From sequence record PQ400055.1: a DNA stretch of 64,000 bases. One strand, written 5' to 3'. The DNA is from a phage. Under the pieces are notes generated by a model. That model had not been told where the DNA came from, made no database searches, and saw only the letters and a list, made by a program, of their open reading frames with translations. Position numbers and translations under genes: made by a program. Shown one piece after another: positions 1 through 64,000 of the stretch. How positions within the stretch are numbered: position 1 is the stretch's first letter; every line of letters begins with the position of its first letter.

Positions 1-21
1 ATTATAACAGGAGACCCAATA

Positions 22-3000: not shown

Positions 3001-3762
3001 GGTAAAATCAATGATGGTGGAGTCGTTGAGCATTACGCCTTTGCTATGAAACACAATGGCGACGCGACAGCATATAGAGACTTTATTGCAGGTCGTAACC
3101 TGTATGCGAAACAAGGCGGTTTATACATTGTTGACCAGTCTAATCCGGCAATGACTCGTTCCCCAGATGGTACGCTGAATATCGGTCACGGTGGAAGTGT
3201 TAACATCAAGGCAGGGCATCAAACGTTAACTACAGAGATCGCCGGACAGAAGTATCAGATCGTACACGCAGGAAACGCCGACGAAGTTCTTAACCGTCAG
3301 TTTGTTAAGAATGCTGGCGATACAATGGTCGGTAAGCTGACTATGGATAATGCGCCTATTGTTTCTGTTAAGCATGAAGCTAGCGCGGCAACCGCTCCGG
3401 CAATCGGTAACATCGGTTTCTGGAATATGCGAGTTACTACCCAGAACATCAAAGAAACTTATCCAGAGAAGAAAAACGGTACTCTGATGCAATGGGGTAC
3501 TGACGCGGACGGGCTTACCCAGCTTTGGTCCCCTGATGGTACTCATAAACATTATATCCGTTCCGGTACTGGTGGTCAATGGACCGCATGGGGTGAAATT
3601 TACACCAAACAGAACAAGCCTACCGCTCAGGAAATTGGGGCAGTGGTTGCCGAAGGTGGTTTGATGAACTCTATGACGGTTCGTGATTGGATCAAAGTTG
3701 GTAATGTTAAAATCATCGCCAATAATCTGACTCGTACCGTAGACTTTATCTGGGAAGACTAA
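22..3762 (+). CDS. 34: long tail fiber proximal subunit (gp34)
   Basis: 1246 aa ORF (T4 gp34 1289 aa); first of four colinear tail-fibre genes; internal array of ~32-aa repeats (ITPKKL..ATE..RG.AEIATQ.ET); RBS aggag before ATG. Confidence 0.88.
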   Translation: MADFSQHFKATFGFDAGNEKVVNVAYADKNTSTDAVNVEFFNYHNGITQYDTTRGYDQYGTTIYQNRPYYAKEDITKPAGDFDPTKWQALRTDPRWDYIAATSGDTPLQSGDYIAADGQFANLTFSMPTKPAEGDTITVKDIGGKCGVNELSFLSTGHEFYHNGNVYNRKWYCTTPYAMNYFIFVRNRWHVYQTGTEPRGVYAQPAIDAIQMQNGDQVFRRSSLGNITLVLPKFANNGDMIQTTDLDGLTATNHVTVKVHEHAEEQSIGTSGLKEIIGKRSGHGVFIFDKTENLWRLWDGDQSVRLKPIIDDTRLQPNSYVAVFGDRDVTLTLPTNVEPGDRIQVSMQYMNGNQNCRIITATEDTKILMQKNMVQFPKRSEYPFNGTDTWTGVSELSFNAANDYVPYLEFSYSEGDDGKKYWLVAHAHPIVERVDPTRKDRVGVIALATQTETNKNHEENPSDEVAVTPKMLANKTANETRRGIARIATQAETHQDTGSNFLDDVIVTPKKLNDCVATEARRGVMEIATQHETNEGLDDTRAITPKKLEERRASEDLAGIAEIVQAGGSAAARRGEAGTGIYNINDHAKIVTPKNINEVKATETSRGVGYLATDAEVQGATESTPQDALLITTRTLTKRTATESRTGIAEIATQEETNLGQSDNHIITPKKLHTRRATETLHGLAEIATQPEFDAGRDDSRISTPLKIKTFFENAQRLKVDPTQGLNLTGDLWQGIMISGLDATEDTKGVAKVATTQLTDAGQDDTTIITPKKLQGKKATEGKEGIIRVGTQAETVAGIMDNVAISPKNFKYVVQTEDTWKATEARRGFLKVATQENCFVGDNLQGSTQELGNYQHDGIAVTPKGLNYALANFLPKMATAQNSLKLGNVEASKWARRDIDQTIESNYTFNKNVNVKGDLECLKSGSFETLSVTKNSTDVPSNGHLVLGDRGVDGHTGITLHGTTASEGMKNSWSIIVGGTGTAQVVDSDAISFGKINDGGVVEHYAFAMKHNGDATAYRDFIAGRNLYAKQGGLYIVDQSNPAMTRSPDGTLNIGHGGSVNIKAGHQTLTTEIAGQKYQIVHAGNADEVLNRQFVKNAGDTMVGKLTMDNAPIVSVKHEASAATAPAIGNIGFWNMRVTTQNIKETYPEKKNGTLMQWGTDADGLTQLWSPDGTHKHYIRSGTGGQWTAWGEIYTKQNKPTAQEIGAVVAEGGLMNSMTVRDWIKVGNVKIIANNLTRTVDFIWED

Positions 3763-3766
3763 TTAA

Positions 3767-3784
3767 AGGGGGCGAAAGCCCCCT
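3767..3784 (+). other. GC-rich stem-loop between genes 34 and 35 (no T-tract)
   Basis: gggggc-gaaa-gccccc, followed by the gp35 RBS. Confidence 0.4.
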
Positions 3785-3795
3785 ATGGGGTTATT

Positions 3796-4935
3796 ATGAC
3801 ACAAGATATAGAATTACGCAATACTGGAATTAGGTTTGCGCATTTCGACGAAGACTCTGCGACATTTACCAGCATTTCAGAAAATAACTCTGTGATGTAT
3901 AAGCTGGAAGTGCGCGGATCTAATGCGGATTCTACCAAACCAGCAAGGATTAGATTTAATGGAGTGGAGATCGTTGGCACTGGCTATGAAAATGGCCTAA
4001 ATTTTAAAGTTCTTACTCCAACTGGACAACTACACGAAGAAAAGGTATTCTATGGTCGCGGTGCTGTTTTGGCAATGCGTGATTATCTTTCTTTGCTGAA
4101 AGGTGACTATATCATTGCGATGGCAACGCATGGAGAATTGTTTGCAGATCCGATCAGTGATGGTGTATTCTCTAAGCTGGGATCTGTATCATTCCCGAAT
4201 CACATTTTGCTACAGCAAATGCCTCGTGTATCATATGCAGCAATTTATTCTACTAAAATGGGTAAAATTGTGTGCGAAGGGATGCAAGCAACTCACGGGG
4301 AAGGACAAGATTCATCTATACAAATTGAGAAAGTCTATGATACTATAGATGATCTTGCTATAACAGGAACACCACAACGATTTTTAGATTATCCGGTTGA
4401 GTATGTTAGCGAAGATGCCGAACATTTCGAGCTAATACAATGGCCTCATGATGAGACCAGCGCCCCACTTGAGGATTTTAACATAAAGGCAGGTGACAAA
4501 CTATCAATATCCTTTGAATTGTTCCGTGATAGTGCCGCAGCCGCAGCCAACGTAACAGCGCGTTTCTATCACAACTACTTCACCGATGGACAATATCAAA
4601 CTGGTGTTCGATACAATGCCAGCAAAAAAGACCAATGGGAAAAGTTTGAAGCCGTCTATACCGTACCGGAAGGAGTTGATAGTGTAGTAACTGGTTGTAT
4701 CAGATATCCAACCAACTCCAATGAAGGTATTGTTAAAATTAGAAACATACTAATAACGCCGATCAGTGGAGTCGTCAAAACTACTGGTCCTACTTCATTT
4801 GGTGTTAATGGTGTTAGAACAACTCATATTCAGGATAACGGTGATTTTACTAACCCTGTAATGAGTCTTCTTAAACTACCCAGAGATAATAAACACATCA
4901 CATCCAACAACTTTAAAGAGTTCGATGTTGATTAA
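3796..4935 (+). CDS. 35: long tail fiber hinge connector (gp35)
   Basis: 379 aa (T4 gp35 372 aa); position between gp34 and gp36; sequence not compared directly. Confidence 0.7.
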   Translation: MTQDIELRNTGIRFAHFDEDSATFTSISENNSVMYKLEVRGSNADSTKPARIRFNGVEIVGTGYENGLNFKVLTPTGQLHEEKVFYGRGAVLAMRDYLSLLKGDYIIAMATHGELFADPISDGVFSKLGSVSFPNHILLQQMPRVSYAAIYSTKMGKIVCEGMQATHGEGQDSSIQIEKVYDTIDDLAITGTPQRFLDYPVEYVSEDAEHFELIQWPHDETSAPLEDFNIKAGDKLSISFELFRDSAAAAANVTARFYHNYFTDGQYQTGVRYNASKKDQWEKFEAVYTVPEGVDSVVTGCIRYPTNSNEGIVKIRNILITPISGVVKTTGPTSFGVNGVRTTHIQDNGDFTNPVMSLLKLPRDNKHITSNNFKEFDVD

Positions 4936-4945
4936 CATTTTTAAC

Positions 4946-4977
4946 AAGCCGATCCATGTGGTCGGCTTTATTTTTAT
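4946..4977 (+). terminator. rho-independent terminator after gene 35
   Basis: aagccga-tccatgtgg-tcggctt followed by tttattttt. Confidence 0.7.
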
Positions 4978-5096
4978 ACAGTTGGTTAAATTGTAACCAA
5001 AACGAAGAAAGATCTTTAGAATAATAGAAAATTTGTTTCGGTTAAAAAATAGCCAGTGCCTACGGCACGTCGCGAAGCGATATTTTGTTAACATTC

Positions 5097-5104
5097 TATA
5101 AATA
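5097..5104 (+). promoter_or_regulatory. T4-type late promoter (TATAAATA) upstream of gene 36
   Basis: Exact tataaata ~35 nt upstream of the gene 36 ATG. Confidence 0.6.
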
Positions 5105-5137
5105 CTCGGAACTATAACTAATTTTTGAGGTTACTTT

Positions 5138-6628
5138 ATGGCAGATTTGAAATATGGATCTACTGTAGGTGGATCTCCCATTTGGACGCAAGGAAACTTG
5201 ACGATCCAGCCAGCGGGGGATCAGCTTTTCTACAAAGGTCATAAAATCTATACCGCTTTTGATAGACCTTCGGCTACCGATTTTGATGCTGTTAGTGCAT
5301 CCGAAGGTGGCACATTTCAAAAGCAAGTTCATTTCGAGGAAGGTTTAAGCGTAGGTAGCGCATCGGCTGGAGAAACCAAAAAGAATGGTATCTTTAAAGG
5401 TCAGAGCGACGCTGCTAATTTTGACGGCGTAAGCTGGGGTTTGCATTCATGGAAGTCAATCGGCTTTGTTAATGCCCGTGATGGCGTTATTATGGCGTAT
5501 ATTGACACCACAACGGGCGAATTTAAGTCTAAAGGGACTATCGAAGGGACAACCATTAAAGACACAGGTCAACGTGTCTATAGCCCTGTTAATAAACCAA
5601 CGAATAATGATTTGGATTTAGTTTCCCGTCGCGGTGATACTCTCTCAGGAACGTATAATTTAAACACTGTCACTGTTAAACTATCGGTTGATTCGAAATT
5701 AATTGCAAGGGAACGTGATTTAATTAATTTTGATGCGACTAAGATCTATTATGGTAACGTTCTTGATACGTTGGTCTTCCGAAGTAAAGATGAGCCTACC
5801 ATTTTTGTTAATGGCAGAGAAGGTCGTTTTTATCACACCAACAATAAACCAACTAAAGCCGATGTTGGGCTAGGCAATGTCACCAATGATGCACAGGTTA
5901 AACGTGCTGGTGATATTATGGAAGGTAACTTGCAAGCGCCTAGAATGTTGGCGACAAACGATCCCGCTGGTCCTAATGAATTGGTTCGTTTGAGCTACTT
6001 TGAGCGAAAATCAATGGTAGCAAATCCAACCATCATTGGAAACGTTGATTGGAACACTCTTATTAATCGCGGTATCTATCGTGTGGAAAATGCTGGGTCA
6101 GGTACTAATAAACCGTCTGATAGCTATTATAACGGCGTTTTGATGGTATATCGACCAGAAGATGCGGTCGGTACTCGTCGAATTGTTCAGGTGTATTATC
6201 CTGAATCTATTGACCATCCGATGTGCTGGCGTTCGTGTTCTAATGAATCATGGACTGCATGGAACTATGTAGATCACCGTAAATTAGCCGATATTCGCTA
6301 TGTTAACGTAACTGGCGATACCATGACAGGACCGTTAACTGTTCCGGCTGCAAATGGCGTTAGAACAGCTAAAACTAACTATAACGGGGATAACTGTTAT
6401 GCGGCGTTAAGCGGTGCTGATGGTACTGCTATGATTCACCGCATTAGTGATATTAAAGGGACCGAAAAGCTGGGGATCACCCACGACTCAAAGGTCGTGT
6501 TTTTCCGTTCTCGAAACAATACTCAAACCGTGGACCGCTATCAGCTTTATCATGAAGGTAATAAACCTACTCCGGCTGATGTTGGAGCGGTTCCACTTAA
6601 TGCGGTGATTGATTTTGGTACTTTCTAA
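5138..6628 (+). CDS. 36: long tail fiber distal connector (gp36), extended relative to T4
   Basis: N-terminus MADLKYGSTVGGSPIWTQGNL matches T4 gp36 MADLKVGSTTGGSVIWHQGNF; 496 aa vs 221 aa in T4; late promoter TATAAATA upstream. Confidence 0.82.
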   Translation: MADLKYGSTVGGSPIWTQGNLTIQPAGDQLFYKGHKIYTAFDRPSATDFDAVSASEGGTFQKQVHFEEGLSVGSASAGETKKNGIFKGQSDAANFDGVSWGLHSWKSIGFVNARDGVIMAYIDTTTGEFKSKGTIEGTTIKDTGQRVYSPVNKPTNNDLDLVSRRGDTLSGTYNLNTVTVKLSVDSKLIARERDLINFDATKIYYGNVLDTLVFRSKDEPTIFVNGREGRFYHTNNKPTKADVGLGNVTNDAQVKRAGDIMEGNLQAPRMLATNDPAGPNELVRLSYFERKSMVANPTIIGNVDWNTLINRGIYRVENAGSGTNKPSDSYYNGVLMVYRPEDAVGTRRIVQVYYPESIDHPMCWRSCSNESWTAWNYVDHRKLADIRYVNVTGDTMTGPLTVPAANGVRTAKTNYNGDNCYAALSGADGTAMIHRISDIKGTEKLGITHDSKVVFFRSRNNTQTVDRYQLYHEGNKPTPADVGAVPLNAVIDFGTF

Positions 6629-6632
6629 TTTT

Positions 6633-6657
6633 AGCGGGGATTATCTCCCCGCTTTTC
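6633..6657 (+). terminator. rho-independent terminator after gene 36
   Basis: agcgggga-ttatc-tccccgct followed by tttt. Confidence 0.65.
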
Positions 6658-6698
6658 TAAATAATATTATTCTAATAACCGTTTAAGGATTTTATAAA

Positions 6699-9629
6699 AT
6701 GGCAGATTTAAGCAGAATCCAATTTAAACGCACTAGCACTAAAGGTCGTAAACCGGATGCTAGTACGATGAATCCGGGGGAATTGGCAATCAACCTTGCG
6801 GATCAATATCTTCTTACTAAAAATGATTCCGGTGATATTATCAATTTAAGTTGTCCTCCGGTGTATGACCGCGATGTTACAATGGCGGGTAAGGTTAAAG
6901 GTAATAATTATATCTTAAGTAAAACCGCTAACTATCTGGAAGATCAGACAGCGAGAGATCTTAACTACTTTGGTGCTTTCCGTACCAATGGTCTTGATGG
7001 TCTTCTCGAACTCACGCTAAACGTTCCTCACTCTTCCGGTGTCCAATATGGTCGAGGATTTACTTTCCAGTATGGACATACTGGATCACGAGTAGAAACC
7101 TATGGCTATAATAGAGAAGGTCAAAAAGCATTTAGCTATAAAATGTATCACGAAGGTGATAAACCAACTCCAGGAGAATTGAACGTCTATAGCAAACAAG
7201 AAGTTGACCGTATGTTTGTTAAGAACGTTAAACTTGCTACATCTCCTCGTGATATCGTTGAAGGCTATTTTAAATTAGCAACTGCAATGATTCCACAAAA
7301 CGGTCTTAGCGTATTTTTCCGTATTCATGGCGGTAACGGATATAACGTTACTGCATACGATCAAGTTGATATTGTAGAAATTGTTATTCGCAGTGGAAAT
7401 GGTCGCCCTAAAGGTGTTAACGTTATTGCATATCGCCGAAATACAAACAAATCATTTGATGTTTTGGCTGTTAATACTTCTGGTGATAACTATGATATCT
7501 ATGTGAAATATCAGCGTTACACTGATAACGTTATTGTTGAATTTGGTAAAAGTGTTGGTGTTAATCTGGTAGTTCATGACGTTCCAGATTTTGTTGCTGA
7601 ACGTCCTGCTGGTGATAATGTTATTGGCGGTCGTGCTGTAACTCTTTTCAACACCGAAAATAAACGTGGTGTGTTAAGTTTTGATGATAACACACAAAAC
7701 AGCTATGACATTGTTCATCTAAGTAATGATAAAGGTACTGGACGGAAATATATTCGTAAATTCCGTAGCAATTATAACGAAATGGTTTGGCATGAAACCG
7801 TTCAGGGTGCTGTATATCGTCTTGCTACTGGTGCTACAGATTCTACAGAAGTTATTAGAATTGATTCTAATAGTGCAATACCGGGTAATTATAAAGGATA
7901 TGTAATTACTGGTAAAATGGAATTGCACGGTGGTGGTAATGCGATGACTTTACATCGACAGACTGGTCAAGCTGCATATATGGCGTGGTGGGATCGTCGT
8001 GATGGTAAAAACCAACGTAGTGGTTATATCGGTCATGCGGATGGTACTAGTGATGGTTTTGTGTGGCGTAATGATGTTGGTGCTAACTCATTTGATTTGG
8101 AAGGTAGTGGACAAGTAAATTTGACTACAGGAAAAACAAAAATTGTATATACCAATGGTCAATATTATTCCGCTAACGCTGATGCATTCCGTATGATTTA
8201 CGGTAAGTATGGTGCATTCTGGCGAAATGATGGTGGTAAAGTTTATCTGTTGTCTACTGCCGAAAATGATAGATTTGGTGGTTGGAATACATATCGACCT
8301 TTTATCTACGATCTTACTTCCGGTAACGTTCAATTAGGTGGTGATGGAAACGAAGATGTATTAACTCTAGAACGCGCAAGCAAGGCCGCTCGATTCTCTG
8401 GCAACGCTTACATCAAAGGTCAACATTTAACATTTGATGCTGGTGCTGGACAATCCCGCGATTACTTCCGGTTTAACCATTGGGGCGATAGTAATAACGC
8501 TCGCGATAACATCCTACAGATTGAAGACAGTCAGGGTGCACACTTTACCACTGAACGCGCTATGGGTACTGGCAATATCACAGCACGTTTTAAAGGCTTT
8601 GTGCGTGTAGAATCCGGTGAGATTGCCTTTGATGCTAATCGTGGATCTGCGTCTCAATTTACCTTACATACATGGGGTAACGAGCAACGCAAACAGGTTT
8701 TTGAATGTAAGGATGCTACTAGTTATCATTGGTATACCGAACGTACAAACGGTGGAACTGGTCCTATCCTGTTCTCTGTTGCTGGTACATTAAAAACTGC
8801 GAGCAATATACAGGTTGGCGGTGCTGATATTGAGTTTCGTCGCAGTGGTAATAAGCATTTATGGTTTAGAGATCCGAACGGTTTAGAATTAGGTTTGATG
8901 TACTGCGATGATGCTGGTGTTATCCGCTTCCGTGGTCAGAAACAAGGTCAAACTTGGAAACTTGCTGATAAAATGATTCATCTTGAGGCGGGGACTGTCG
9001 GCGGGTCTGATAAAGGTTTGATTCGTGGTAATGTTGCTGGTGGTAGCTGGGCTAGCTGGCGTGATCGTTCTGCCGGAATCCTCGTAGACTGTCCGAACTC
9101 AACCGATTCCGCTCATAACATCTGGAAAGCGACTCATTGGGGAAAATATCATATTGCGGCAATGGGTGTGCATGTTCCTAGGGGTACTATTACCAATGCT
9201 TTAGCTCGCCTAAACGTTCACGACGCCAACTTTGACTTTAACGCTGCGGGTGATTTTAGCGCAGGTCGTAACGGTAGCTTTAACGATGTTTATATTCGTT
9301 CTGATACTCGCCTTAAAATCAATAAGGAAGAGTATAAGGAGAATGCCACCGATAAAGTTAATCGCTTGACGGTATACACCTATGACAAGGTTAAATCTTT
9401 AACCGACCGTACTGTCATTGCTCATGAAGTTGGTATTATTGCTCAGGATCTTGAAAAAGAATTGCCGGAAGCCGTAACAACTTCTAAGATCGGCGATCCA
9501 GATAATCCAGAAGAGATCTTAACAATTTCTAACTCCGCTATCAACGCTCTTTTAATTAAGGCGTTTCAGGAAATGAGCGAAGAATTGAAAGCCGTTAAAG
9601 CTGAACTAGCGGAACTTAAAAAGAATTAA
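6699..9629 (+). CDS. 37: long tail fiber distal subunit (gp37) with C-terminal intramolecular chaperone-like domain
   Basis: N-terminus [29 protein letters not shown] matches T4 gp37 [29 protein letters not shown]; C-terminal ~110 aa ([14 protein letters not shown]...AELKKN) resembles peptidase S74 auto-cleaving chaperone. Confidence 0.88.
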   Translation: [976 protein letters not shown]

Positions 9630-9669
9630 GGAAACTCCCAGGGAAGGGAACTACTAAGGAGAAACGGCT

Positions 9670-9909
9670 ATGGTCTATAATATCGTCATTGGTGCTTTGT
9701 CTAATTTCGGAATGAAATTATTGTCAAAGTTAATTAGTGAAAAGATGCTCACTAAAATTTTCTTCTATTGCGCTCGTCGTCTTGCGGCCTATACCAATAC
9801 GCCAATTGATGATCGTTTCGTGGAAGAACTTTATAAGGAGTTTAATAAAGATCAGTCAGAAGATAGTAACGAGCAAGATAAACCTAGTGATAGTCAAGTA
9901 CCTAAATAA
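9670..9909 (+). CDS. hypothetical small protein with hydrophobic N-terminus, in the position of T4 gene 38
   Basis: 79 aa ORF with strong RBS aaggag 8 nt upstream; hydrophobic N-terminus, acidic C-terminus; no recognisable gp38 similarity. Confidence 0.5.
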   Translation: MVYNIVIGALSNFGMKLLSKLISEKMLTKIFFYCARRLAAYTNTPIDDRFVEELYKEFNKDQSEDSNEQDKPSDSQVPK

Positions 9910-9942
9910 GAGTACACTGTCATAGTTATCTTAGGGCATTAT

Positions 9943-10599
9943 ATGCAAGTTTCTGAAAAAGGGAAAGACTTTGCTATCTCAAATGTCCTGCGCGCTATTT
10001 TCACAACTAAAAGCACGGAGTTGCTCGTACTTCGTGTTTTTGCTGCCGTCGTGTTGTCCATATTAGCATTTGTCGTTTATAGTAAAAACGAGTTATTTGC
10101 GCTTTATAAAGAGACTCGTTATGAGACTTATGCTCACATTCTCCAGGTAGAGAAAGACCGCAATTTTGATAATGCAGCACAGGAGCAGTTACAGATAGTT
10201 CATGTGTCGGCTGATGCCGATTTTTCTGCTGTTTTTAGTTTTCGTCCGAAAAACCTAAACTATTTTGTTGATTTGGTGGCATATGAAGGAAAGCTACCGC
10301 ATACAATCGATGAAAAAAATTTAGGCGGATTCCCTATCAATAAAACGAGTGAAGAATATCGTAGGCATCTTTTAGGTAAATCATATTTTACCGATAAAGA
10401 TTTCCAGTATATTCCATCAAGAGAAAAGAAATTAGAGAATATCGATATAGGTTTCATGTATTCTTGTCCTATATTCAATCTCGATAATGTCTATTCTGGT
10501 AGTATCGCCATTTCATGGAAGAATAAACCGGATATTGACATTGAGAATTTAGATACTCTTTGCAATCAATCTGCCAGAATCCTCGGAAGGATTAGATAA
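9943..10599 (+). CDS. t: holin
   Basis: 218 aa, same length as T4 holin t; motifs YKETRYETYAHILQVEKDR, QLQIVHVSADADFSAVFSFRPKNLNYFVDLVAYEGKLP and MYSCPIFNLDNVYSG match T4 t. Confidence 0.92.
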   Translation: MQVSEKGKDFAISNVLRAIFTTKSTELLVLRVFAAVVLSILAFVVYSKNELFALYKETRYETYAHILQVEKDRNFDNAAQEQLQIVHVSADADFSAVFSFRPKNLNYFVDLVAYEGKLPHTIDEKNLGGFPINKTSEEYRRHLLGKSYFTDKDFQYIPSREKKLENIDIGFMYSCPIFNLDNVYSGSIAISWKNKPDIDIENLDTLCNQSARILGRIR

Positions 10600-12449: not shown

Positions 12450-13208
12450 TTACTTGCAAACGTATTGATCTACATCAATTGCGCCACCGAATGTGGGATG
12501 ACGTTTTTCAAATCGAATAGTTCCGTCGTTTGGTTCGAAAACGGAGTATTCATATAGATCTTTCTTGCCAACATTCTTATAAAACCCGCCTTTCGTCATA
12601 ACGGTTTCTTGTACGTTTGCTTTGTGTACGTTGTATTCATCAATGTATACAAAATCAACCATCTTCCCATTTTTAATGGTTACTTTAAGATCCCCTGGCT
12701 GGTTTCCATATTTTGCATACAGTGGAGCCTCTTTAATTTTTGTGGAAATTCCATCTTTCATACTCCACTCATAACGAACGGTGCATTGATAGGTAAAAGT
12801 TTCGACCTTCGGTTCTTCTACCACTTTTGCTTCCTGTTTCGGTTGTTCTTCTTCAACCTTCGCAGAAGTCTCTGAATCGCTTTCTGACGCGGTTTCTTCT
12901 TTAGGTAATACATTCATCAAGTTTTGGATTTGAGCGTTATATACAGCCTCCAGTGGCTGAATCTGCCCGATATTGATCATTGTATCACGAACAGTTTTAT
13001 TCCAGTTTCGTTGCTCTTGTTTCAGAGACGGATCAATCTTAACAGCCTTAACATACACCTCATGAAGTTTAGAGTCCAGTGCGGAGATAGACTCATTAGC
13101 ACAAATAAACTTCTCTGATTTGGTAGTAGCTTTAGCGCAATCAAAGGACGCAGCGTTAGCACCGAAAGCAGTAGCAGAAAGAACGATAGCAGCGATAATG
13201 TTTTTCAT
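12450..13208 (-). CDS. secreted protein with LprI/DUF1311-like (lysozyme-inhibitor-type) N-terminal domain
   Basis: 252 aa; signal peptide MKNIIAAIVLSATAFGANAAS; motif FDCAKATTKSEKFICANESISALDSKLHEVY...EQRNWNKTVRD fits the DUF1311 pattern; preceded by promoter cassette at 13237-13271. Confidence 0.6.
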   Translation of the reverse strand: MKNIIAAIVLSATAFGANAASFDCAKATTKSEKFICANESISALDSKLHEVYVKAVKIDPSLKQEQRNWNKTVRDTMINIGQIQPLEAVYNAQIQNLMNVLPKEETASESDSETSAKVEEEQPKQEAKVVEEPKVETFTYQCTVRYEWSMKDGISTKIKEAPLYAKYGNQPGDLKVTIKNGKMVDFVYIDEYNVHKANVQETVMTKGGFYKNVGKKDLYEYSVFEPNDGTIRFEKRHPTFGGAIDVDQYVCK

Positions 13209-13236
13209 AATATATTCCTCAGTGTTTTGTCTTGAT

Positions 13237-13271
13237 GGGAGTATCTTACTACTCCCTTAATCCGGTGTCAA
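13237..13271 (-). promoter_or_regulatory. sigma70-type early promoter cassette with palindrome around the -10
   Basis: Minus strand TTGACA-17-TAAGAT; inverted repeat GGGAGTA/TACTCCC brackets the -10. Confidence 0.6.
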
Positions 13272-13603: not shown

Positions 13604-13793
13604 TAATACGCATTTTCTGTATAGCCATGATCTGGTTTACTGCTTCTTCTTTACGTTCTTGCGTGATAATGTGACCAGATTCCGCAAACTCTCCAGCAAC
13701 TTCTTCTACGATCTCGCGAACTTGAGAACGTCCAAAGATGCGGTTTCCTTCGTAGCTCATAAACTCTGTTACTACTTGCTCGATAGATTTCAT
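13584..13793 (-). CDS. hypothetical protein
   Basis: 69 aa ORF preceded by promoter cassette and RBS aggag. Confidence 0.5.
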   Translation of the reverse strand: MKSIEQVVTEFMSYEGNRIFGRSQVREIVEEVAGEFAESGHIITQERKEEAVNQIMAIQKMRINARAGA

Positions 13794-13815
13794 GTGATTC
13801 TCCTTTCGTTTGGTA

Positions 13816-13850
13816 TGGGAGTATGTTACTACTCCCTTATCTTTACGTCA
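13816..13850 (-). promoter_or_regulatory. sigma70-type early promoter cassette with palindrome
   Basis: Minus strand TTGACG-17-TAACAT; GGGAGTAgtaacaTACTCCC; then conserved leader and AAGGAG. Confidence 0.6.
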
Positions 13851-13858
13851 ACTAGTTT

Positions 13859-14101
13859 TTAGAAATTTTTCGCTTCTTCTTCGGTCATCATAACCGCGCA
13901 TTCGTGCATAACTTTGAAAACCGGATCAATCATGTCGAATGCTTCGCGGGACAGTTTACGAGAAGCGATTTTGATTGCTTCTACGTCTTCTACTACAGGA
14001 ACAAAAACAGTTTTCAGTTCGTCGAGGACGGCAGCTTCTTTTTCATTCAGGAAGATCCCAGCGTCGTACAGTGCAACTTCGATAACATTAACTTTAACCA
14101 T
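13859..14101 (-). CDS. hypothetical protein (start moved to internal ATG)
   Basis: ORF track gives 13859..14164, but that start overlaps the -35 of a promoter cassette; internal ATG at 14101 has RBS ggagg. Confidence 0.5.
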   Translation of the reverse strand: MVKVNVIEVALYDAGIFLNEKEAAVLDELKTVFVPVVEDVEAIKIASRKLSREAFDMIDPVFKVMHECAVMMTEEEAKNF

Positions 14102-14128
14102 TTTTATTTCCTCCAGTTCGTTTCGGTA

Positions 14129-14165
14129 TGGGAGTATAATACTACCGATGACCTTTGGCGTCAAC
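14129..14165 (-). promoter_or_regulatory. sigma70-type early promoter cassette
   Basis: Minus strand TTGACG-18-TATTAT followed by ACTCCCATACC. Confidence 0.5.
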
Positions 14166-14882: not shown

Positions 14883-14910
14883 TAAAAAAGCCGACCACAA
14901 GGATCGGCTT
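14883..14910 (-). terminator. rho-independent terminator (minus strand)
   Basis: Minus-strand aagccga-tccttgtgg-tcggctt followed by ttttttatttt; same stem as the gene 35 terminator. Confidence 0.7.
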
Positions 14911-21920: not shown

Positions 21921-21955
21921 GGGGACATTATGATATATCCCCGATCCAGTGTCAA
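21921..21955 (-). promoter_or_regulatory. sigma70-type early promoter cassette with palindrome
   Basis: Minus strand TTGACA-17-CATAAT; GGGGA...TCCCC brackets the -10. Confidence 0.55.
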
Positions 21956-39798: not shown

Positions 39799-39824
39799 AA
39801 AACGGGGAGTATTTTATACTCCCC
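39799..39824 (-). terminator. stem-loop with T-tract between genes 45 and 44
   Basis: Minus-strand ggggagtat-aaa-atactcccc followed by gtttt; just downstream of a -10 element. Confidence 0.55.
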
Positions 39825-44621: not shown

Positions 44622-44651
44622 AGTATAACGGGGATTTCTCCCCGCGTCAAC
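44622..44651 (-). promoter_or_regulatory. sigma70-type early promoter cassette with palindromic spacer
   Basis: Minus strand TTGACG-18-TATACT; CGGGGA-gaaa-TCCCCG palindrome in the spacer. Confidence 0.5.
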
Positions 44652-49042: not shown

Positions 49043-49560
49043 TTCTCAGCCTTTAATCTTTCTAGTTCTTCTTCCAGTTCCTTGATCCGTTGGTCACGTT
49101 CAAAGTCACGCTGTAGCTTAGTGGCAAATACTCGCTTAAACTGATTGTAATCATCGATTTTAAACACTTCTTCTTCGCCATAGCGACGTACAGAAACTTC
49201 GTAGTTGTTGAAAAATTGTTCCAACATTGCATCAGTAGTCAGTTCTGACGACACCACTTTAAAATAACGTTCTTCTGATTGCAAAAACCAGTTGTGCGCG
49301 TATTCCCGTACATCATCAACATCTCGACAGGTGTATGTTTTTCCATCAATTTCAATCGCAGAAACATATTCGATATCTGACGCAATTTTTTCAAAAGCGA
49401 TAACTTTAAATGTACGGTCACCGATAAAGTCTGCTATTGCATCATTTGCAACACTGGTTGCAAATGCTTTCCGCGCTCGCTCGTTTTTCCACTGATAGGT
49501 CATACCAACAACAAACATATTACCATCAACAAACATATTACCAACCTCGCTCTTTACCAA
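49039..49560 (-). CDS. paralogous-family protein, member 1 (one repeat unit plus coiled-coil tail)
   Basis: 173 aa; motifs GMTYQWKN...FKV...IEIDGKTYT...WF..ERYFKVV; C-terminal RIKELEEELERLKAEK. Confidence 0.55.
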   Translation of the reverse strand: MVKSEVGNMFVDGNMFVVGMTYQWKNERARKAFATSVANDAIADFIGDRTFKVIAFEKIASDIEYVSAIEIDGKTYTCRDVDDVREYAHNWFLQSEERYFKVVSSELTTDAMLEQFFNNYEVSVRRYGEEEVFKIDDYNQFKRVFATKLQRDFERDQRIKELEEELERLKAEK

Positions 49561-52091: not shown

Positions 52092-52120
52092 AGTATAGGG
52101 GATCTCGCGATCCCCGTCAA
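52092..52120 (-). promoter_or_regulatory. sigma70-type early promoter cassette with palindromic spacer
   Basis: Minus strand TTGACG-17-TATACT; spacer GGGGATC-gcga-GATCCCC. Confidence 0.55.
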
Positions 52121-53278: not shown

Positions 53279-53303
53279 AAAAAGCCGACCCTTTCGGATC
53301 GGC
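53279..53303 (-). terminator. rho-independent terminator after nrdD
   Basis: Minus-strand agccga-tccgaaaggg-tcggct followed by ttttt. Confidence 0.65.
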
Positions 53304-53309
53304 TGAAAT

Positions 53310-55216: not shown

Positions 55217-55711
55217 TTATTTTACCAGTTCTGCTAATTCTTTTTCTTTAGCTTCTAGTTCAGCTTTAAGCTGTTTAATCTCTTGTCGCTTCTTATTAGC
55301 GGCTTCCTGCTTACTATTTCGGATAACCTGATCTAGATACAACTCCCAATCCTGAATATTTTTGATAATGTATCCGTCAACATTAATTGGTCGGAGATTC
55401 AGTACAGCTTCCAGTTTAGTCGCAAAAACTTTAATTGCTGGCGTGAAGTATTCATATTCGTTATCTTCAAACCAATAACCTAGACTTGCATTATCAATAC
55501 GAAGACGAAGTTCAAGATCAAGGTCTTTATCTTCGGTGTAAAGATCTTTCACCTGACCCAGCGAACTAACAACAACTTTAAAACGAATTTTATCTACACC
55601 ACCAAACACATCAGTAAGTATACCAGCAATTGAGCTATTAGCGCAAGATTGGTCGCTGAATGCGTCAAGGTTTTCTTTAGTTACAGTATACCAAACATCT
55701 TGTACCCACAT
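55217..55711 (-). CDS. paralogous-family-related protein with coiled-coil tail
   Basis: 164 aa; ...FKVV...WFEDNEYEYF... and C-terminal KQLKAELEAKEKELAELVK. Confidence 0.5.
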   Translation of the reverse strand: MWVQDVWYTVTKENLDAFSDQSCANSSIAGILTDVFGGVDKIRFKVVVSSLGQVKDLYTEDKDLDLELRLRIDNASLGYWFEDNEYEYFTPAIKVFATKLEAVLNLRPINVDGYIIKNIQDWELYLDQVIRNSKQEAANKKRQEIKQLKAELEAKEKELAELVK

Positions 55712-55735
55712 AATATAATCCTCTCGTTGTTAAGT

Positions 55736-55769
55736 GGGAGTATTATAGCATACTCCCTTCGCATGTCAA
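55736..55769 (-). promoter_or_regulatory. sigma70-type early promoter cassette with palindrome
   Basis: Minus strand TTGACA-16-TATAAT; GGGAGTAtgctataaTACTCCC; leader ...CAACGAGAGGATTATATTATG. Confidence 0.6.
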
Positions 55770-56944
55770 GCACTAACTTTTTTCTTTACTGCTTTCACCT
55801 TCTGGCGAATTGCTCGAATCTCTTCGATCTCTTTTTCAGTCTCTTTAACAATTTCTTTGCGATTCTGAATATCTGTATCTAGATTATCATCAAGTTTAGG
55901 CAGCATGTCAATCAAGAACTTTTTAAAGTCTTTCAGGTTTCGGATAACAGCACCTTCACCCATTACCGCCACGCCTACACCATCCGGCAGATCACCAAAC
56001 AGCTTAACCAGTTCAGACAGATGATCATGATCTTCTAGTGCTTCTTCCGGTTCAGATGGCAGTTCAACAAAGTTATAACGTTCATCATTGCTGATCAAGT
56101 GATACCAGCAAAGACCGAAAGATTTCGGTGTATATTCTACACCATCAATTTCAACCGCGTCAACACTTCCATAATCATCTACTTTAGTTACCTTAAATCC
56201 TTGTCCCAGCTTTTGAACAATTTCAACAACATGACTTGATACAGTTTCAGCGGTAAACCAATATGGCAAATTATGCTGATTTGGTTTGTAGCGTTCACCT
56301 ACTTTAAATCTCTGACCATCCGCTTGCATAGAATGAAATTGTTGTTTCGTGATTTCCGCGAAGTATTCAAATTCGCTACCGTCAAACAAGCAATTCCATT
56401 GATCACAAAAACGGTCCGCCTTGACGGTTTCACCTTTCGCGGTGATCATGGTAGCTGATCCGTGCAATTCTTCTTCAACTAAAAAGCCATATTCGACAAA
56501 ATCAACAAGTTTCATGGCTTCTTTGTGCTCTGGGTCATGCTCTCCCCAGAATCGCTTAAATTCTTGCAAACCTTCTGGGGTAAACGAATAACATTTACCT
56601 TTTTCAAAGTAAGTCGGCATTGCATCCTCTTTCTTGTTCATCGCTTCGTATGCCTCTTTTGAGATACGTTTAAAGTATTTGCGCTCATTGTGCATAATCA
56701 TAGTAGACCAATAATAAACGATATCCTCAGCGGAATAAACTACATCTCCAGCTTCAATAGTAATAACATGACCGTGGTCATCTTTTTCTAATACTTTAAA
56801 GCCCTTTTCTACGATTTCAGCAACCCGAATATGACCACGGCGCGAAGCATCGGTCAGAATAATTGAATAGCGAGAAAAGTCTAGAAACTCATCTTTACCG
56901 CCTTCACGGAATGCATAGTAATGACCTTCAAAGAATTTAGCCAT
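55766..56944 (-). CDS. paralogous-family protein (multi-repeat member)
   Basis: 392 aa; repeated ...YYAF...GFKVL...ERKYFKRISKE... units plus C-terminal coiled coil. Confidence 0.55.
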   Translation of the reverse strand: MAKFFEGHYYAFREGGKDEFLDFSRYSIILTDASRRGHIRVAEIVEKGFKVLEKDDHGHVITIEAGDVVYSAEDIVYYWSTMIMHNERKYFKRISKEAYEAMNKKEDAMPTYFEKGKCYSFTPEGLQEFKRFWGEHDPEHKEAMKLVDFVEYGFLVEEELHGSATMITAKGETVKADRFCDQWNCLFDGSEFEYFAEITKQQFHSMQADGQRFKVGERYKPNQHNLPYWFTAETVSSHVVEIVQKLGQGFKVTKVDDYGSVDAVEIDGVEYTPKSFGLCWYHLISNDERYNFVELPSEPEEALEDHDHLSELVKLFGDLPDGVGVAVMGEGAVIRNLKDFKKFLIDMLPKLDDNLDTDIQNRKEIVKETEKEIEEIRAIRQKVKAVKKKVSA

Positions 56945-56969
56945 AATATAATCCTCTCGTTGTTTAGAT

Positions 56970-57004
56970 GGGAGTATCTTACTACTCCCGTTTCATCATG
57001 TCAA
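56970..57004 (-). promoter_or_regulatory. sigma70-type early promoter cassette with palindrome
   Basis: Minus strand TTGACA-17-TAAGAT; GGGAGTAgtaagaTACTCCC; near-identical to the copy at 13237. Confidence 0.6.
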
Positions 57005-57585: not shown

Positions 57586-57854
57586 TTCACTAATTGAACA
57601 GCACGGAACAGAATGCGCTCACACGGAAGCAGCATAAATTCCCAACGCGGATCAAAGTCTTTAGCGGTGTACGTTTTCCCATCAACCGAGATTTCACTTA
57701 CATAACCAACAGGTGACACTTTAAGAACAGTAAACCCATTCTTGATGACTTCGTAGGTATCTTTCACCCCTTCGTATTCATCATCTAAGAAGTCTTTATG
57801 TGCTTGCTCAGATTTAAAAACATAGGCCACACCGGATTTAAACATCTTACGCAT
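57582..57854 (-). CDS. paralogous-family protein (single unit; start moved to internal ATG)
   Basis: MRKMFKSGVAYVFK...GFTVLKV...ISVDGKTYT; RBS aaggag; track start 57914 lies inside the promoter. Confidence 0.5.
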   Translation of the reverse strand: MRKMFKSGVAYVFKSEQAHKDFLDDEYEGVKDTYEVIKNGFTVLKVSPVGYVSEISVDGKTYTAKDFDPRWEFMLLPCERILFRAVQLVK

Positions 57855-57879
57855 TGTTGATTCTCCTTCTTGATTAGAT

Positions 57880-57914
57880 GGGAGTATTTTACTACTCCCA
57901 TTTCTTATTGTCAA
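57880..57914 (-). promoter_or_regulatory. sigma70-type early promoter cassette with palindrome
   Basis: Minus strand TTGACA-17-TAAAAT; GGGAGTAgtaaaaTACTCCC. Confidence 0.6.
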
Positions 57915-57917
57915 CTA

Positions 57918-58406
57918 CTATCTTAATCTTTGTATGAATTGTTTCTTATACTTCTTCGTGATCTCTTCTCTTGTATCAGCGTCGCAGTAATCGAAACCTT
58001 CTGCGTCCATAATAGCAACCATCTCCGCGCGTGTCAAGCGTGAAAATCGTTTTACTTTATCAACAGCATATTGAGGATGTAAATGATTGTTGGTGTAGTC
58101 TCCTTTGATGTAATTAACATAGTTTGTAGCCCAAACAACGAAATCAGCACCTAAAGCACCAACACCAAACCGTTTAAAGTCTCCGGTCAACGATCCTTCT
58201 AGGCGGTTGCAACACGAATGAAGCAATCCCCTTACGCGGCCTTGCCCTTTACCATCTAGATCGTGGTCGTGGTCAAGATGGTTTTTGCTCATATCCTCAA
58301 AAAGTGGCAATTGACAAAGGGGGCAAATGCCCCCCTGTTTTTCGAATAGTTCTTGTTTGTACTCTTTAGCACTCTTAGCAGTCAGTAACATAAATTCACC
58401 CTCCAA
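57918..58406 (-). CDS. 49: endonuclease VII (Holliday junction resolvase, gp49)
   Basis: HLDHDHDLDGKGQGRVRGLLHSCCN matches T4 gp49 HLDHDHELNGPKAGKVRGLLCNLCN; zinc-binding CPLCQ; 162 aa. Confidence 0.9.
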   Translation of the reverse strand: MEGEFMLLTAKSAKEYKQELFEKQGGICPLCQLPLFEDMSKNHLDHDHDLDGKGQGRVRGLLHSCCNRLEGSLTGDFKRFGVGALGADFVVWATNYVNYIKGDYTNNHLHPQYAVDKVKRFSRLTRAEMVAIMDAEGFDYCDADTREEITKKYKKQFIQRLR

Positions 58407-60767: not shown

Positions 60768-61112
60768 TTATTTCACGTTAACGCCGTTATCAATCCAGCC
60801 GACGCTATTTGGTTTAACAGTTTTACCATAGGATGCATACTTAATCAAGCATGGTTTAACATCATTATCAAATCTTCCTAAACGTACTCCCAAATCAGGA
60901 ATATCCATGTATGCGGCTTTATATCCCCATGTACCGTATTCAGAATCAATCTCAACCGGACGGCCTTTAAAAGCATACACTACACCGTGACGGTCAACGA
61001 TAACATAGCGATAGCCAGCCGGAAGATACACAGTTTCGCCGTAAACTTTAACTGGAGTAGCAGAAGAGATAAACATAATATAATCCTCACATCGTTCATT
61101 TGATGCGGTCAT
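60768..61112 (-). CDS. hypothetical protein
   Basis: 114 aa ORF. Confidence 0.45.
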   Translation of the reverse strand: MTASNERCEDYIMFISSATPVKVYGETVYLPAGYRYVIVDRHGVVYAFKGRPVEIDSEYGTWGYKAAYMDIPDLGVRLGRFDNDVKPCLIKYASYGKTVKPNSVGWIDNGVNVK

Positions 61113-61146
61113 TATATGATAACCGCATTTTCATGTCAACAGTTTT

Positions 61147-61786: not shown

Positions 61787-61815
61787 AGTATAGGGGATCA
61801 CCGATCCCCTGTCAA
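61787..61815 (-). promoter_or_regulatory. sigma70-type early promoter cassette with palindromic spacer
   Basis: Minus strand TTGACA-17-TATACT; spacer GGGGATC-ggt-GATCCCC. Confidence 0.55.
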
Positions 61816-63898: not shown

Positions 63899-63924
63899 AA
63901 AAAAGGCTATCCCGAAGGATAGCC
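63899..63924 (-). terminator. rho-independent terminator (minus strand)
   Basis: Minus-strand ggctatcc-ttcg-ggatagcc followed by ttttttg. Confidence 0.65.
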
Positions 63925-64000
63925 CATAAAATTACACACGAGCGCCGTAGATCGTGCCTACTTTATCCCAGCGTGGGGCATTACCAGTAACAGCTTTACC

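Follow-up and report, generated by a model that had tools for sequence, protein, structure and literature searches.

Inverted repeats around the -10 hexamer in an RB49-like phage as probable stem-loops of known PeSL cassettes

The inverted repeat GGGAGTA/TACTCCC at positions 56970-56989 of phage sequence record PQ400055.1 (plus strand GGGAGTATCTTACTACTCCC) raises the question of why a palindrome should be wrapped around the -10 hexamer of a promoter, and why the same arms recur at other promoters of the genome. An initial annotation of the window, by which we mean the whole 64,000-nucleotide stretch analysed here, had offered three possibilities: the operator of a dimeric protein, a cruciform affecting promoter activity, or a recombination site. 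Our analysis indicates that the repeats are very probably the stem-loops of promoter-early stem-loop (PeSL) cassettes of the RB49 type, an element that is already known, and this degree of confidence covers the identification together with the roles that we propose for the cassettes below. Recognition of the PeSL avoids re-describing the repeat as a new operator or cruciform, and leaves a hairpin inside a promoter and lacking a U-tract for which termination, protection of RNA 3' ends and a recombination signal are the mechanistic options.

Geometry and setting of the repeat

An exact search of the window for GGGAGTA-N4-12-TACTCCC returned six matches (13237-13256, 13817-13836, 39805-39823, 55736-55757, 56970-56989 and 57880-57899) and the same search of 100 dinucleotide-preserving shuffles returned none, which bears out the repeat as real, although this count overstates the significance because the copies, as paralogous cassettes, did not arise independently. 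All five copies listed by the initial annotation were recovered, one of them beginning at 13817 and not at 13816, and the sixth, at 39805, had been missed. Five copies bracket a -10 hexamer, and in these the minus (coding) strand reads TTGAC(A/G)-N16/17-TAnnAT, with TAAGAT, TAACAT, TAAAAT or TATAAT as the -10 hexamer, followed by a Shine-Dalgarno sequence and an ATG. The 5' arm is made of the last seven or eight bases of the spacer and the 3' arm runs from the last T of the -10 hexamer through the discriminator to -1, in agreement with the earlier placement of one arm in the spacer and the other at the transcription start. The hexamer had been assigned to the loop; this is correct for most of it, but its last one or two bases belong to the 3' arm. 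Likewise, the perfect 7-bp stem that had been described is found at 13237, 13817 and 56970, but the stem is 8 bp at 55736 and 9 bp at 57880. The arms are separated by 5, 6 or 8 nt, the 5-nt spacing being that of the 39805 copy.

Around this core the cassettes share a common layout. The promoters are preceded by an A/T-rich stretch such as gaaaataatttaaaagtag, upstream stop codons lie 0-9 nt from the -35 hexamer and in two cassettes (57004 and 55769) the TGA is embedded within TTGACA itself, the hairpin follows the stop codon of the upstream gene by 12-25 nt, and in the GGGAGTA cassettes the Shine-Dalgarno sequence and ATG come 35-40 nt after the -10 hexamer. The transcript of the 57004 cassette is predicted to start at A 56969, from the usual 7-nt distance to the -10 hexamer. 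These cassettes are intergenic, directly upstream of small early ORFs in a Krischvirus genome, and are found preferentially in hyperplastic regions; the genes neighbouring them all lie on one strand, the minus-strand genes of the cassette region are confirmed by the annotation of the closest relative, and the GC skew of the window is negative beyond about 10 kb. All 59 records that match the window are Krischvirus (RB49-like, T4-type), with identities to the window of 99.7% for Escherichia phage kaaroe and 97.7% for RB49. Promoters are annotated in the GEC-3S record at several of the cassettes, that at 57914 among them. A search of the whole window against Rfam gave no family match. Separately, a late-promoter reading of the loops was rejected, as TATAAATA occurs in none of them.

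Table 1. Probable PeSL cassettes and related hairpins in the window, all on the minus strand
Feature	Span	Promoter	Stem-loop	Translation start	Setting
Cassette 57004, probable PeSL	56942..57004	-35 TTGACA 56999-57004, containing TGA stop (57001-57003) of upstream ORF; -10 TAAGAT 56976-56981	5' arm GGGAGTA 56983-56989; 3' arm TACTCCC 56970-56976	SD GAGAGGA 56952-56958; ATG 56942-56944	Upstream of frd.2/goF-like gene
Cassette 57914, probable PeSL	57852..57914	-35 57909-57914; -10 TAAAAT 57886-57891	9-bp stem ATGGGAGTA/TACTCCCAT 57878-57901	ATG 57852-57854	Downstream of gene 49 (endonuclease VII)
Cassette 55769, probable PeSL	55709..55769	-35 55764-55769, containing frd.2 TGA stop; -10 TATAAT 55742-55747; promoter annotated in GEC-3S	8-bp stem GGGAGTAT/ATACTCCC 55736-55757	ATG 55709-55711	Between frd.2 and ORF057c
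Cassette 13851, probable PeSL	13791..13851	TTGACG-17-TAACAT	Repeat 13817-13836	ATG 13791-13793; product begins MKSIEQ...	Hyperplastic region
Cassette 13271, probable PeSL	13206..13271	TTGACA-17-TAAGAT	Repeat 13237-13256	ATG 13206-13208	Hyperplastic region of cassette 13851
Sixth arm copy (39805)	39804..39824		GGGGAGTAT-AAA-ATACTCCCC, then GTTTTAAT		Gene 45/gene 44 intergenic region
Half cassette 14164	14099..14164	TTGACG-17-TATTAT-ACTCCCAT	3' arm kept; no complementary 5' arm (atcGGTAg)		
Cassette with -10 in loop	61103..61128		ATGCGGT-N12-ACCGCAT; 10 bp when extended with one G.U pair		
Cassette with -10 in loop	21921..21942		GGGGA(TAT)-...CATAAT...-(ATG)TCCCC		
Probable PeSL hairpin, spacer class	61792..61810		AGGGGATC-ggt-GATCCCCT, between -35 and -10		
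Probable PeSL hairpin, spacer class	52098..52115		GGGGATC-gcga-GATCCCC		
Probable PeSL hairpin, spacer class	44629..44644		CGGGGA-gaaa-TCCCCG		

This layout is that of the PeSLs defined in RB49 and phi1 by Arbiol et al. 2010 (Genome Biol Evol 2:140; PMC2839356), who described about 100 such motifs, 51 in RB49 and 52 in phi1, each composed of an upstream stop codon, an AT-rich region, a sigma-70 consensus promoter, a stem-loop, a Shine-Dalgarno sequence and an ATG, with the stem-loop mostly between -35 and -10 or overlapping -10. Comeau et al. 2014 (PMC4122927) summarized the RB49-type stem as 'GN-loop-CN' and extended PeSLs to T4/PST and KVP40/nt-1. Reconstruction of the experimentally used RB49 PeSLs from the RB49 sequence makes the correspondence direct: PeSL193/192, which comes from the ORF192 mini-circle region and was cloned to test promoter activity (PMC2839356), has TTGAAA-17-TAAGAT with GGGAGTGTC/GATACTCCC around the -10 hexamer and belongs to the sub-class of the 57004 cassette, and the arms of PeSL205/204 are TGGAGTA/TACTCCC. 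RB49 and Phi1 both have direct orthologues of cassettes 57914, 57004 and 55769, placed alike with respect to gene 49, ORF060c, ORF059c, frd.2 and ORF057c and with 0-4 differences per 105 nt. The further palindromes reported by the initial annotation, including GGGGATC/GATCCCC and CGGGGA/TCCCCG, are indeed present, in the spacers of cassettes 61815, 52120 and 44650, and the hairpin at 61792-61810 is of the class of RB49 PeSL211/210.

Two loci depart from the common layout. The 39805 copy lies 6 nt downstream of TTGACT-17-TATAAT without bracketing its -10 hexamer, is identical to the 57880 hairpin minus one loop base (-14.9 kcal/mol, z -4.1), and is the only copy followed by GUUUUAAU; our reading of it is a PeSL-derived intercistronic hairpin. 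The 14164 half cassette folds poorly in its core (MFE only -6.7, shuffle p 0.10). Its 3' half agrees with the 13851 cassette as found in RB49, so that from its sequence it looks like a recombinant cassette.

Pairing, conservation and the DNA-level readings

Folding of the cassettes provides a test of the stem that is more informative than the count of GGGAGTA copies. When the core, a 38-nt stretch from -35 to just past the start site, was folded for the 20 curated intergenic cassettes of the window, 11 had a hairpin of -11.6 kcal/mol or lower, each with a spacer-shuffle p of 0.013 or less, and the mean core fold of the cassettes was -7.1 against -3.8 kcal/mol for promoter look-alikes inside genes (p = 0.03). 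In these 11 cassettes, in which the 17-nt spacer is complementary to the discriminator, at least six arm sequences are used (GGGAGTA, ATGCGGT, GGGAGA, GGGGA(TAT), GGGGATC and CGGGGA), and four arm types bracket the -10 hexamer: GGGAGTA/TACTCCC, ATGCGGT/ACCGCAT, GGGAGA.../...TCTCCC and GGGGATAT/ATGTCCCC. The discriminator thus varies among cassettes and the spacer changes to match it, which favours selection on pairing over recognition of a single sequence, and pairing itself appears to be under selection. Individual hairpins illustrate the range, with -12.9 kcal/mol (shuffle p 0.000) at 61103-61128, -12.7 kcal/mol (shuffle p 0.013) at 21921-21942 and, for regions of 51-56 nt around the six GGGAGTA hairpins, -11.9 to -14.9 kcal/mol with z of -2.3 to -4.1; the RNA hairpin of the 57004 cassette has -13.6 kcal/mol over 56 nt (z -3.9). 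Other cassettes have, in place of such a core hairpin, canonical terminators just upstream of the -35 hexamer or hairpins downstream of the promoter. The mean difference between sense and antisense folds, compared in order to tell RNA from duplex DNA, is -1.0 kcal/mol (Wilcoxon p = 0.078), and the G.U counts in this comparison are confounded by the flanks.

Comparison among relatives, based on GenBank records, places this pairing within a cassette that is conserved as a whole. When a 2.5-kb region was aligned for 14 relatives, polymorphism affected 6% of the columns in cassettes against 17% of those in the flanks, and mean divergence was 1.0% against 6.9% (Fisher p = 2.6e-5), a divergence about 7-fold lower in the cassettes than in the flanking genes; these 14 relatives carry the 57004 cassette either unchanged or with 1-2 nt of difference. 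Within the cassettes of the same alignment, the 5' arms were polymorphic at 0 of 21 columns and the 3' arms at 3 of 21, and extra constraint on the arms was not seen (3 of 42 arm columns against 11 of 183 other columns polymorphic); constraint on the arms therefore does not exceed that on the cassette in which they sit. Changes that do occur in the stem are of two kinds. TACTCCC has become TGCTCCC in two different cassettes; the A that directly follows the -10 hexamer is here replaced by G, which keeps a G.T/G.U pair on the sense strand. With the promoter hexamers intact, the palindrome has also been damaged, ECD7 having TACTACA at the 57004 site, with two G-C pairs lost, GEC-3S having TACTACC at the 13851 site, and the 14164 cassette having no 5' arm at all. 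The palindrome is thus usually kept among relatives, yet, as these sequences show, the stem is not an absolute requirement. Beyond the genus, an IMG/VR scan for GGGAGTA-N5-8-TACTCCC matched at least 120 loci, roughly the chance level and almost all listed without promoter context, and among the matches listed a TTGACA promoter was present only in two pelagiphage-like groups; this exact-pattern scan says little about the Krischvirus element, and an anchor-pattern scan of IMG/VR for orthologous cassettes yielded 3 contigs only.

These patterns bear directly on the two proposals that place the function of the repeat in duplex DNA. A dimeric protein that regulates early promoters, such as a phage shut-off protein occupying GGGAGTA/TACTCCC over the -10 hexamer, would account for identical 7-bp half-sites centred on the -10 of five promoters and for 5' arms that are invariant in 14 relatives. 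Such an operator would be expected to have half-sites of fixed sequence and spacing, and the copies have neither: the spacing differs among copies, paralogous cassettes show the same geometry with unrelated arms or a stem-loop shifted relative to the promoter, and at 39805 the GGGAGTA arms stand downstream of a promoter. The recurrent A-to-G change, moreover, preserves a wobble pair on one strand and breaks the dyad symmetry, and the identity of the arms is explained by homology of whole cassettes, flanks included. Because arm spacing and arm sequences vary among cassettes in this way, we regard an operator as highly improbable.

Extrusion of a cruciform from supercoiled duplex, with a consequent modulation of promoter activity, has in its favour that the palindrome is perfect over the -10 hexamer, where initiation melts the DNA, and that both strands can fold. 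Stable cruciform extrusion normally needs longer arms and short spacers. Here the stems are 7-9 bp, the loops are 6 nt, and folding of either strand as a DNA hairpin yields just -5.3 to -5.4 kcal/mol, to be set against the melting of about 20 bp; in other cassettes, in addition, imperfect stems contain G.T pairs on one strand only, which weaken the second hairpin that a cruciform would form. Given the short stems, the 6-nt loops and the weak DNA hairpin, a cruciform is extremely unlikely.

RNA-level roles and recombination between cassettes

The model that we favour treats the repeat as one part of a PeSL cassette of about 60-100 bp. Such a cassette begins with the stop codon of the preceding gene (sometimes within the -35 hexamer) and leads through an A/T-rich stretch into a near-consensus sigma-70 early promoter; after this come a G(n)-loop-C(n) hairpin, a Shine-Dalgarno sequence and the start codon, ATG, of a small early gene. 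In the bracketing sub-class the hairpin is nested in the promoter, its 5' arm supplied by the end of the spacer and its 3' arm by the discriminator (-7 to -1). The cassette's own transcript, starting at the A just past the 3' arm, would lack the hairpin, and read-through RNA from the upstream gene on the same strand would form it, where it could act as an attenuator or terminator, or as a 3'-end hairpin, that insulates each gene module. The hairpin would form in single-stranded DNA as well, and the general homologous recombination of the phage may use the conserved cassette as a portable patch of homology through which the flanked genes are deleted, inserted or swapped. Identical GGGAGTA arms in five or six copies would then reflect common descent or gene conversion, and not a sequence recognized by a protein. 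Strong transcription has been reported for other PeSLs, PeSL206/205 having been measured at about 13,000 Miller units as a promoter (PMC2839356).

The repeat had been characterized as largely a DNA-level structure. That description suits the cassette's own transcript, which is predicted to begin after the 3' arm, but does not extend to read-through RNA from upstream, which carries the whole hairpin because the neighbouring genes share one strand; the published role as terminator or attenuator concerns this RNA and had been overlooked in the initial annotation. What the hairpin does in such RNA is constrained by what follows it. The tails of the five bracketing hairpins (AUCUAAAC, AUCUAAUC, ACUUAACA, AUACCAAA and AUCAAGAC) are not U-rich and include no U-tract, and a consensus terminator scan of the minus strand gave no match at these five sites; the bracketing hairpins are therefore not canonical intrinsic terminators, with which they share a G+C-clamped hairpin just after a stop codon. 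Canonical terminators with T-runs do occur directly upstream of other cassettes in the window (63904-63925, 53283-53304 and approximately 14884-14905), and the 57880 hairpin is annotated as an ARNOLD terminator (-12.0) in two GenBank records (G37-3 and G2248). A terminator or attenuator role for the bracketing hairpins is suggested by analogy with PeSL211/210, whose stem-loop, the one put to an experimental terminator test, cut lacZ expression about as much as rrnB T1 did (PMC2839356). In the RB49 sequence that element is a spacer-class GGGGAT.../...ATCCCC hairpin without a U-tract, and the published test thus concerns another sub-class, the hairpin at 57004 bracketing the -10 hexamer instead.

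A lacZ reporter responds alike to termination and to RNA decay, and the published result is compatible with both. The hairpin might accordingly be a processing or stability element that sets the 3' end and half-life of the upstream mRNA, either by blocking 3' exonucleases or by hiding or presenting the GGAG of GGGAGUA to a RegB-type endoribonuclease. Its position 12-25 nt after the upstream stop without a U-tract would suit such an element, and the GGAG in the 5' arm is reported to be the target motif of T4 RegB (PMC1702504); several PeSL hairpin classes, such as GGGGATC and ATGCGGT, lack GGAG, however, and we consider this explanation, by either route, unlikely. Of the eight papers on record in the literature searched that mention PeSLs, none appears from its title and abstract to be a study of transcript ends in RB49-like phages.

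The proposal that the repeats are recombination sites holds at the level of the whole cassette, where it is supported by junctions in two relatives and by the published mini-circles that arise by recombination between neighbouring PeSLs (PMC2839356), but not for the arms as such. KFS-EC is the only relative without ORF060c and ORF059c, the genes between the 57914 and 57004 cassettes, and in their place carries a single cassette. On its left this cassette has the gene 49 flank and 57914-type diagnostic bases (gc, T), and on its right it has 57004-type diagnostics (the loop G, the downstream sequence and the start of frd.2), which places the crossover within the 11 nt GGGAGTAGTAA, comprising the 5' arm and part of the loop. 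In ECD7, a terminator-type cassette is joined to the MKSIEQ gene through a crossover in the Shine-Dalgarno stretch AAAGGAGAATCA. Gene content also varies more widely around the cassettes: the 12.5-15 kb hyperplastic region is covered to between 48 and 100% across the 59 relatives, RB49, JSE and ECD7 have an extra gene with a GGGGATC cassette, and JK32 has a divergent, mosaic ORF057c allele that starts about 25 nt after the cassette ATG. Junctions at several positions of the cassette, as read from these alignments, fit general homologous recombination over a short conserved patch.

The same junctions could be asked to support a more active role, in which the hairpin, folded in single-stranded DNA during replication or recombination, stalls a polymerase or is the target of a phage protein that binds or cuts it, and so becomes a crossover hotspot. 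The KFS-EC crossover lies in the 11-nt GGGAGTAGTAA and not in the adjoining ATACTCCCATCTAA, where identity extends further, over 14 nt, and one cassette lies directly downstream of the gene for endonuclease VII. In the published work one RB49 mini-circle crossover was mapped to the loop, PeSL stem-loops blocked sequencing reactions unless betaine was added, and a specific DNA-binding protein was the subject of speculation (PMC2839356). On the other side, only two junctions bear on this question here and the ECD7 crossover falls elsewhere in the cassette, in the Shine-Dalgarno region; a dedicated recombinase has not been identified in RB49 or phi1, and T4-type recombination is reported in the cited literature to need less than 50 bp of homology. 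A structure-directed hotspot is on balance distinctly unlikely. The more specific idea, that a putative phage protein reads the PeSL hairpin, in its single-stranded DNA fold, as a structure-specific recombination signal, is a long shot, similar to a speculation already raised by Arbiol et al. (PMC2839356); if it were true, the PeSL-flanked genes of a lytic phage would resemble integron cassettes in their behaviour, the hairpins being attC-like. General recombination over the PeSL cassette is the account that we retain.

Relation to published PeSLs and to other gene modules

It has been proposed that T4-like phages acquire, lose and exchange small accessory genes by way of PeSLs, with each gene kept transcriptionally self-contained. 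Our analysis adds to that picture a natural two-gene deletion in KFS-EC with its crossover in the stem-loop, figures for the conservation of the cassettes against the surrounding genes, and the maintenance of pairing with different arms. Compared with the PeSLs of RB49 and phi1, nothing essential differs: the genus, the loci and the architecture are shared, the sequences are nearly identical, and the location at small ORFs in hyperplastic regions and the chimeric cassettes at indel junctions are common to both. The PeSL and PmSL elements of T4/PST and KVP40/nt-1 are likewise cassettes of a promoter and a stem-loop at indel boundaries in hyperplastic regions, but they differ in their promoters (TTTACW and TTGYVH) and stems (AGNA-loop-TCNT and A3-4G3-loop-C3T3-4), and some are built on MotA middle promoters (PMC4122927).

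Wider parallels exist with lambdoid morons and with the attC cassettes of integrons, which are also small single-gene modules bounded by conserved elements. Lambdoid morons carry their own promoter and terminator but are not thought to move via these regulatory sequences. Integrons differ in that no integrase or other dedicated recombinase is known for PeSLs, whose crossovers are spread over the cassette; the likeness lies in attC sites that act as folded single strands and in PeSL-flanked genes that can be excised as circles.

A chimeric cassette, a mosaic gene and a putative half cassette

Comparison of the window with Escherichia virus KFS-EC (MH560358.1) revealed that the segment at KFS-EC 584-646, which corresponds to window 57914-56942, lacks ORF060c and ORF059c, two genes that in the window are flanked by two GGGAGTA-class cassettes, promoters in which the arms GGGAGTA/TACTCCC surround the -10 hexamer. 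At the deletion site KFS-EC retains one chimeric cassette, with the crossover inside GGGAGTAGTAA. A mosaic ORF057c allele occurs in Shigella phage JK32 (3289-3783, against window 55711-55217). Its identity with the window is complete across the cassette and the ~25 nt that open the gene, gives way to high divergence over about 350 nt, and is almost complete again at the 3' end. A further cassette, at 14099-14164, is missing the 5' arm complementary to ACTCCCAT. In its 3' half it agrees with the neighbouring cassette as found in RB49, and so it looks, from sequence comparison, like a recombinant "half" PeSL, the promoter-early stem-loop element of RB49-like phages.

Promoter and terminator packing

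The next gene's TTGACA -35 hexamer contains the TGA stop of the upstream gene at window 57001-57003 and 55766-55768, which packs promoter and gene end very tightly together. Canonical intrinsic terminators lie directly upstream of the -35 in other cassettes, and the phage therefore uses U-tract terminators as well as U-less hairpins embedded in promoters. Read on the plus strand, window 57876-57903 carries the antisense form of the 57880 hairpin, the 9-bp stem of the cassette downstream of gene 49, followed by ATTTCTTATT, with a terminator-like score. This predicted antisense terminator could provide a stop to antisense transcription; the T-rich tail on the antisense strand is absent from the other copies of the hairpin.

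On a larger scale, the sign of the GC skew flips near 10 kb (about 1-10400 versus the rest of the window), coinciding with a strand switch between tail-fibre and holin genes on the plus strand and early and replication genes on the minus strand.

Coordinates of sequence features in the window and in uncultivated marine contigs
Feature	Location	Strand	Description
Half cassette	14099-14164	minus	TTGACG-17-TATTAT + 3' arm ACTCCCAT
Canonical intrinsic terminators	63904-63925, 53283-53304, about 14884-14905	minus	G+C-rich stem + T-run
Short tandem repeats	49503-49545, 56713-56752, 57975-58024		periods 18, 21 and 22; about 2 copies each
Marine promoter, L019	2736-2780		TTGACA, GGGAGTA/TACTCCC arms
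Marine promoter, L111	5174-5220		TTGACA, GGGAGTA/TACTCCC arms
Marine promoter, L070	about 1959	minus	TTGACA, GGGAGTA/TACTCCC arms
Marine promoter, L103	about 3868	minus	TTGACA, GGGAGTA/TACTCCC arms

Matching arms in marine contigs

In all four marine promoters the arms are exactly those of the GGGAGTA class, and a TATACT -10 hexamer shares bases with the 3' arm. Searches, made with L111 and L103, showed that these two contigs resemble Pelagibacter phages, with about 80% and about 73% identity, respectively, to HTVC027P. The marine promoter-hairpins could be a convergent design or a product of chance.
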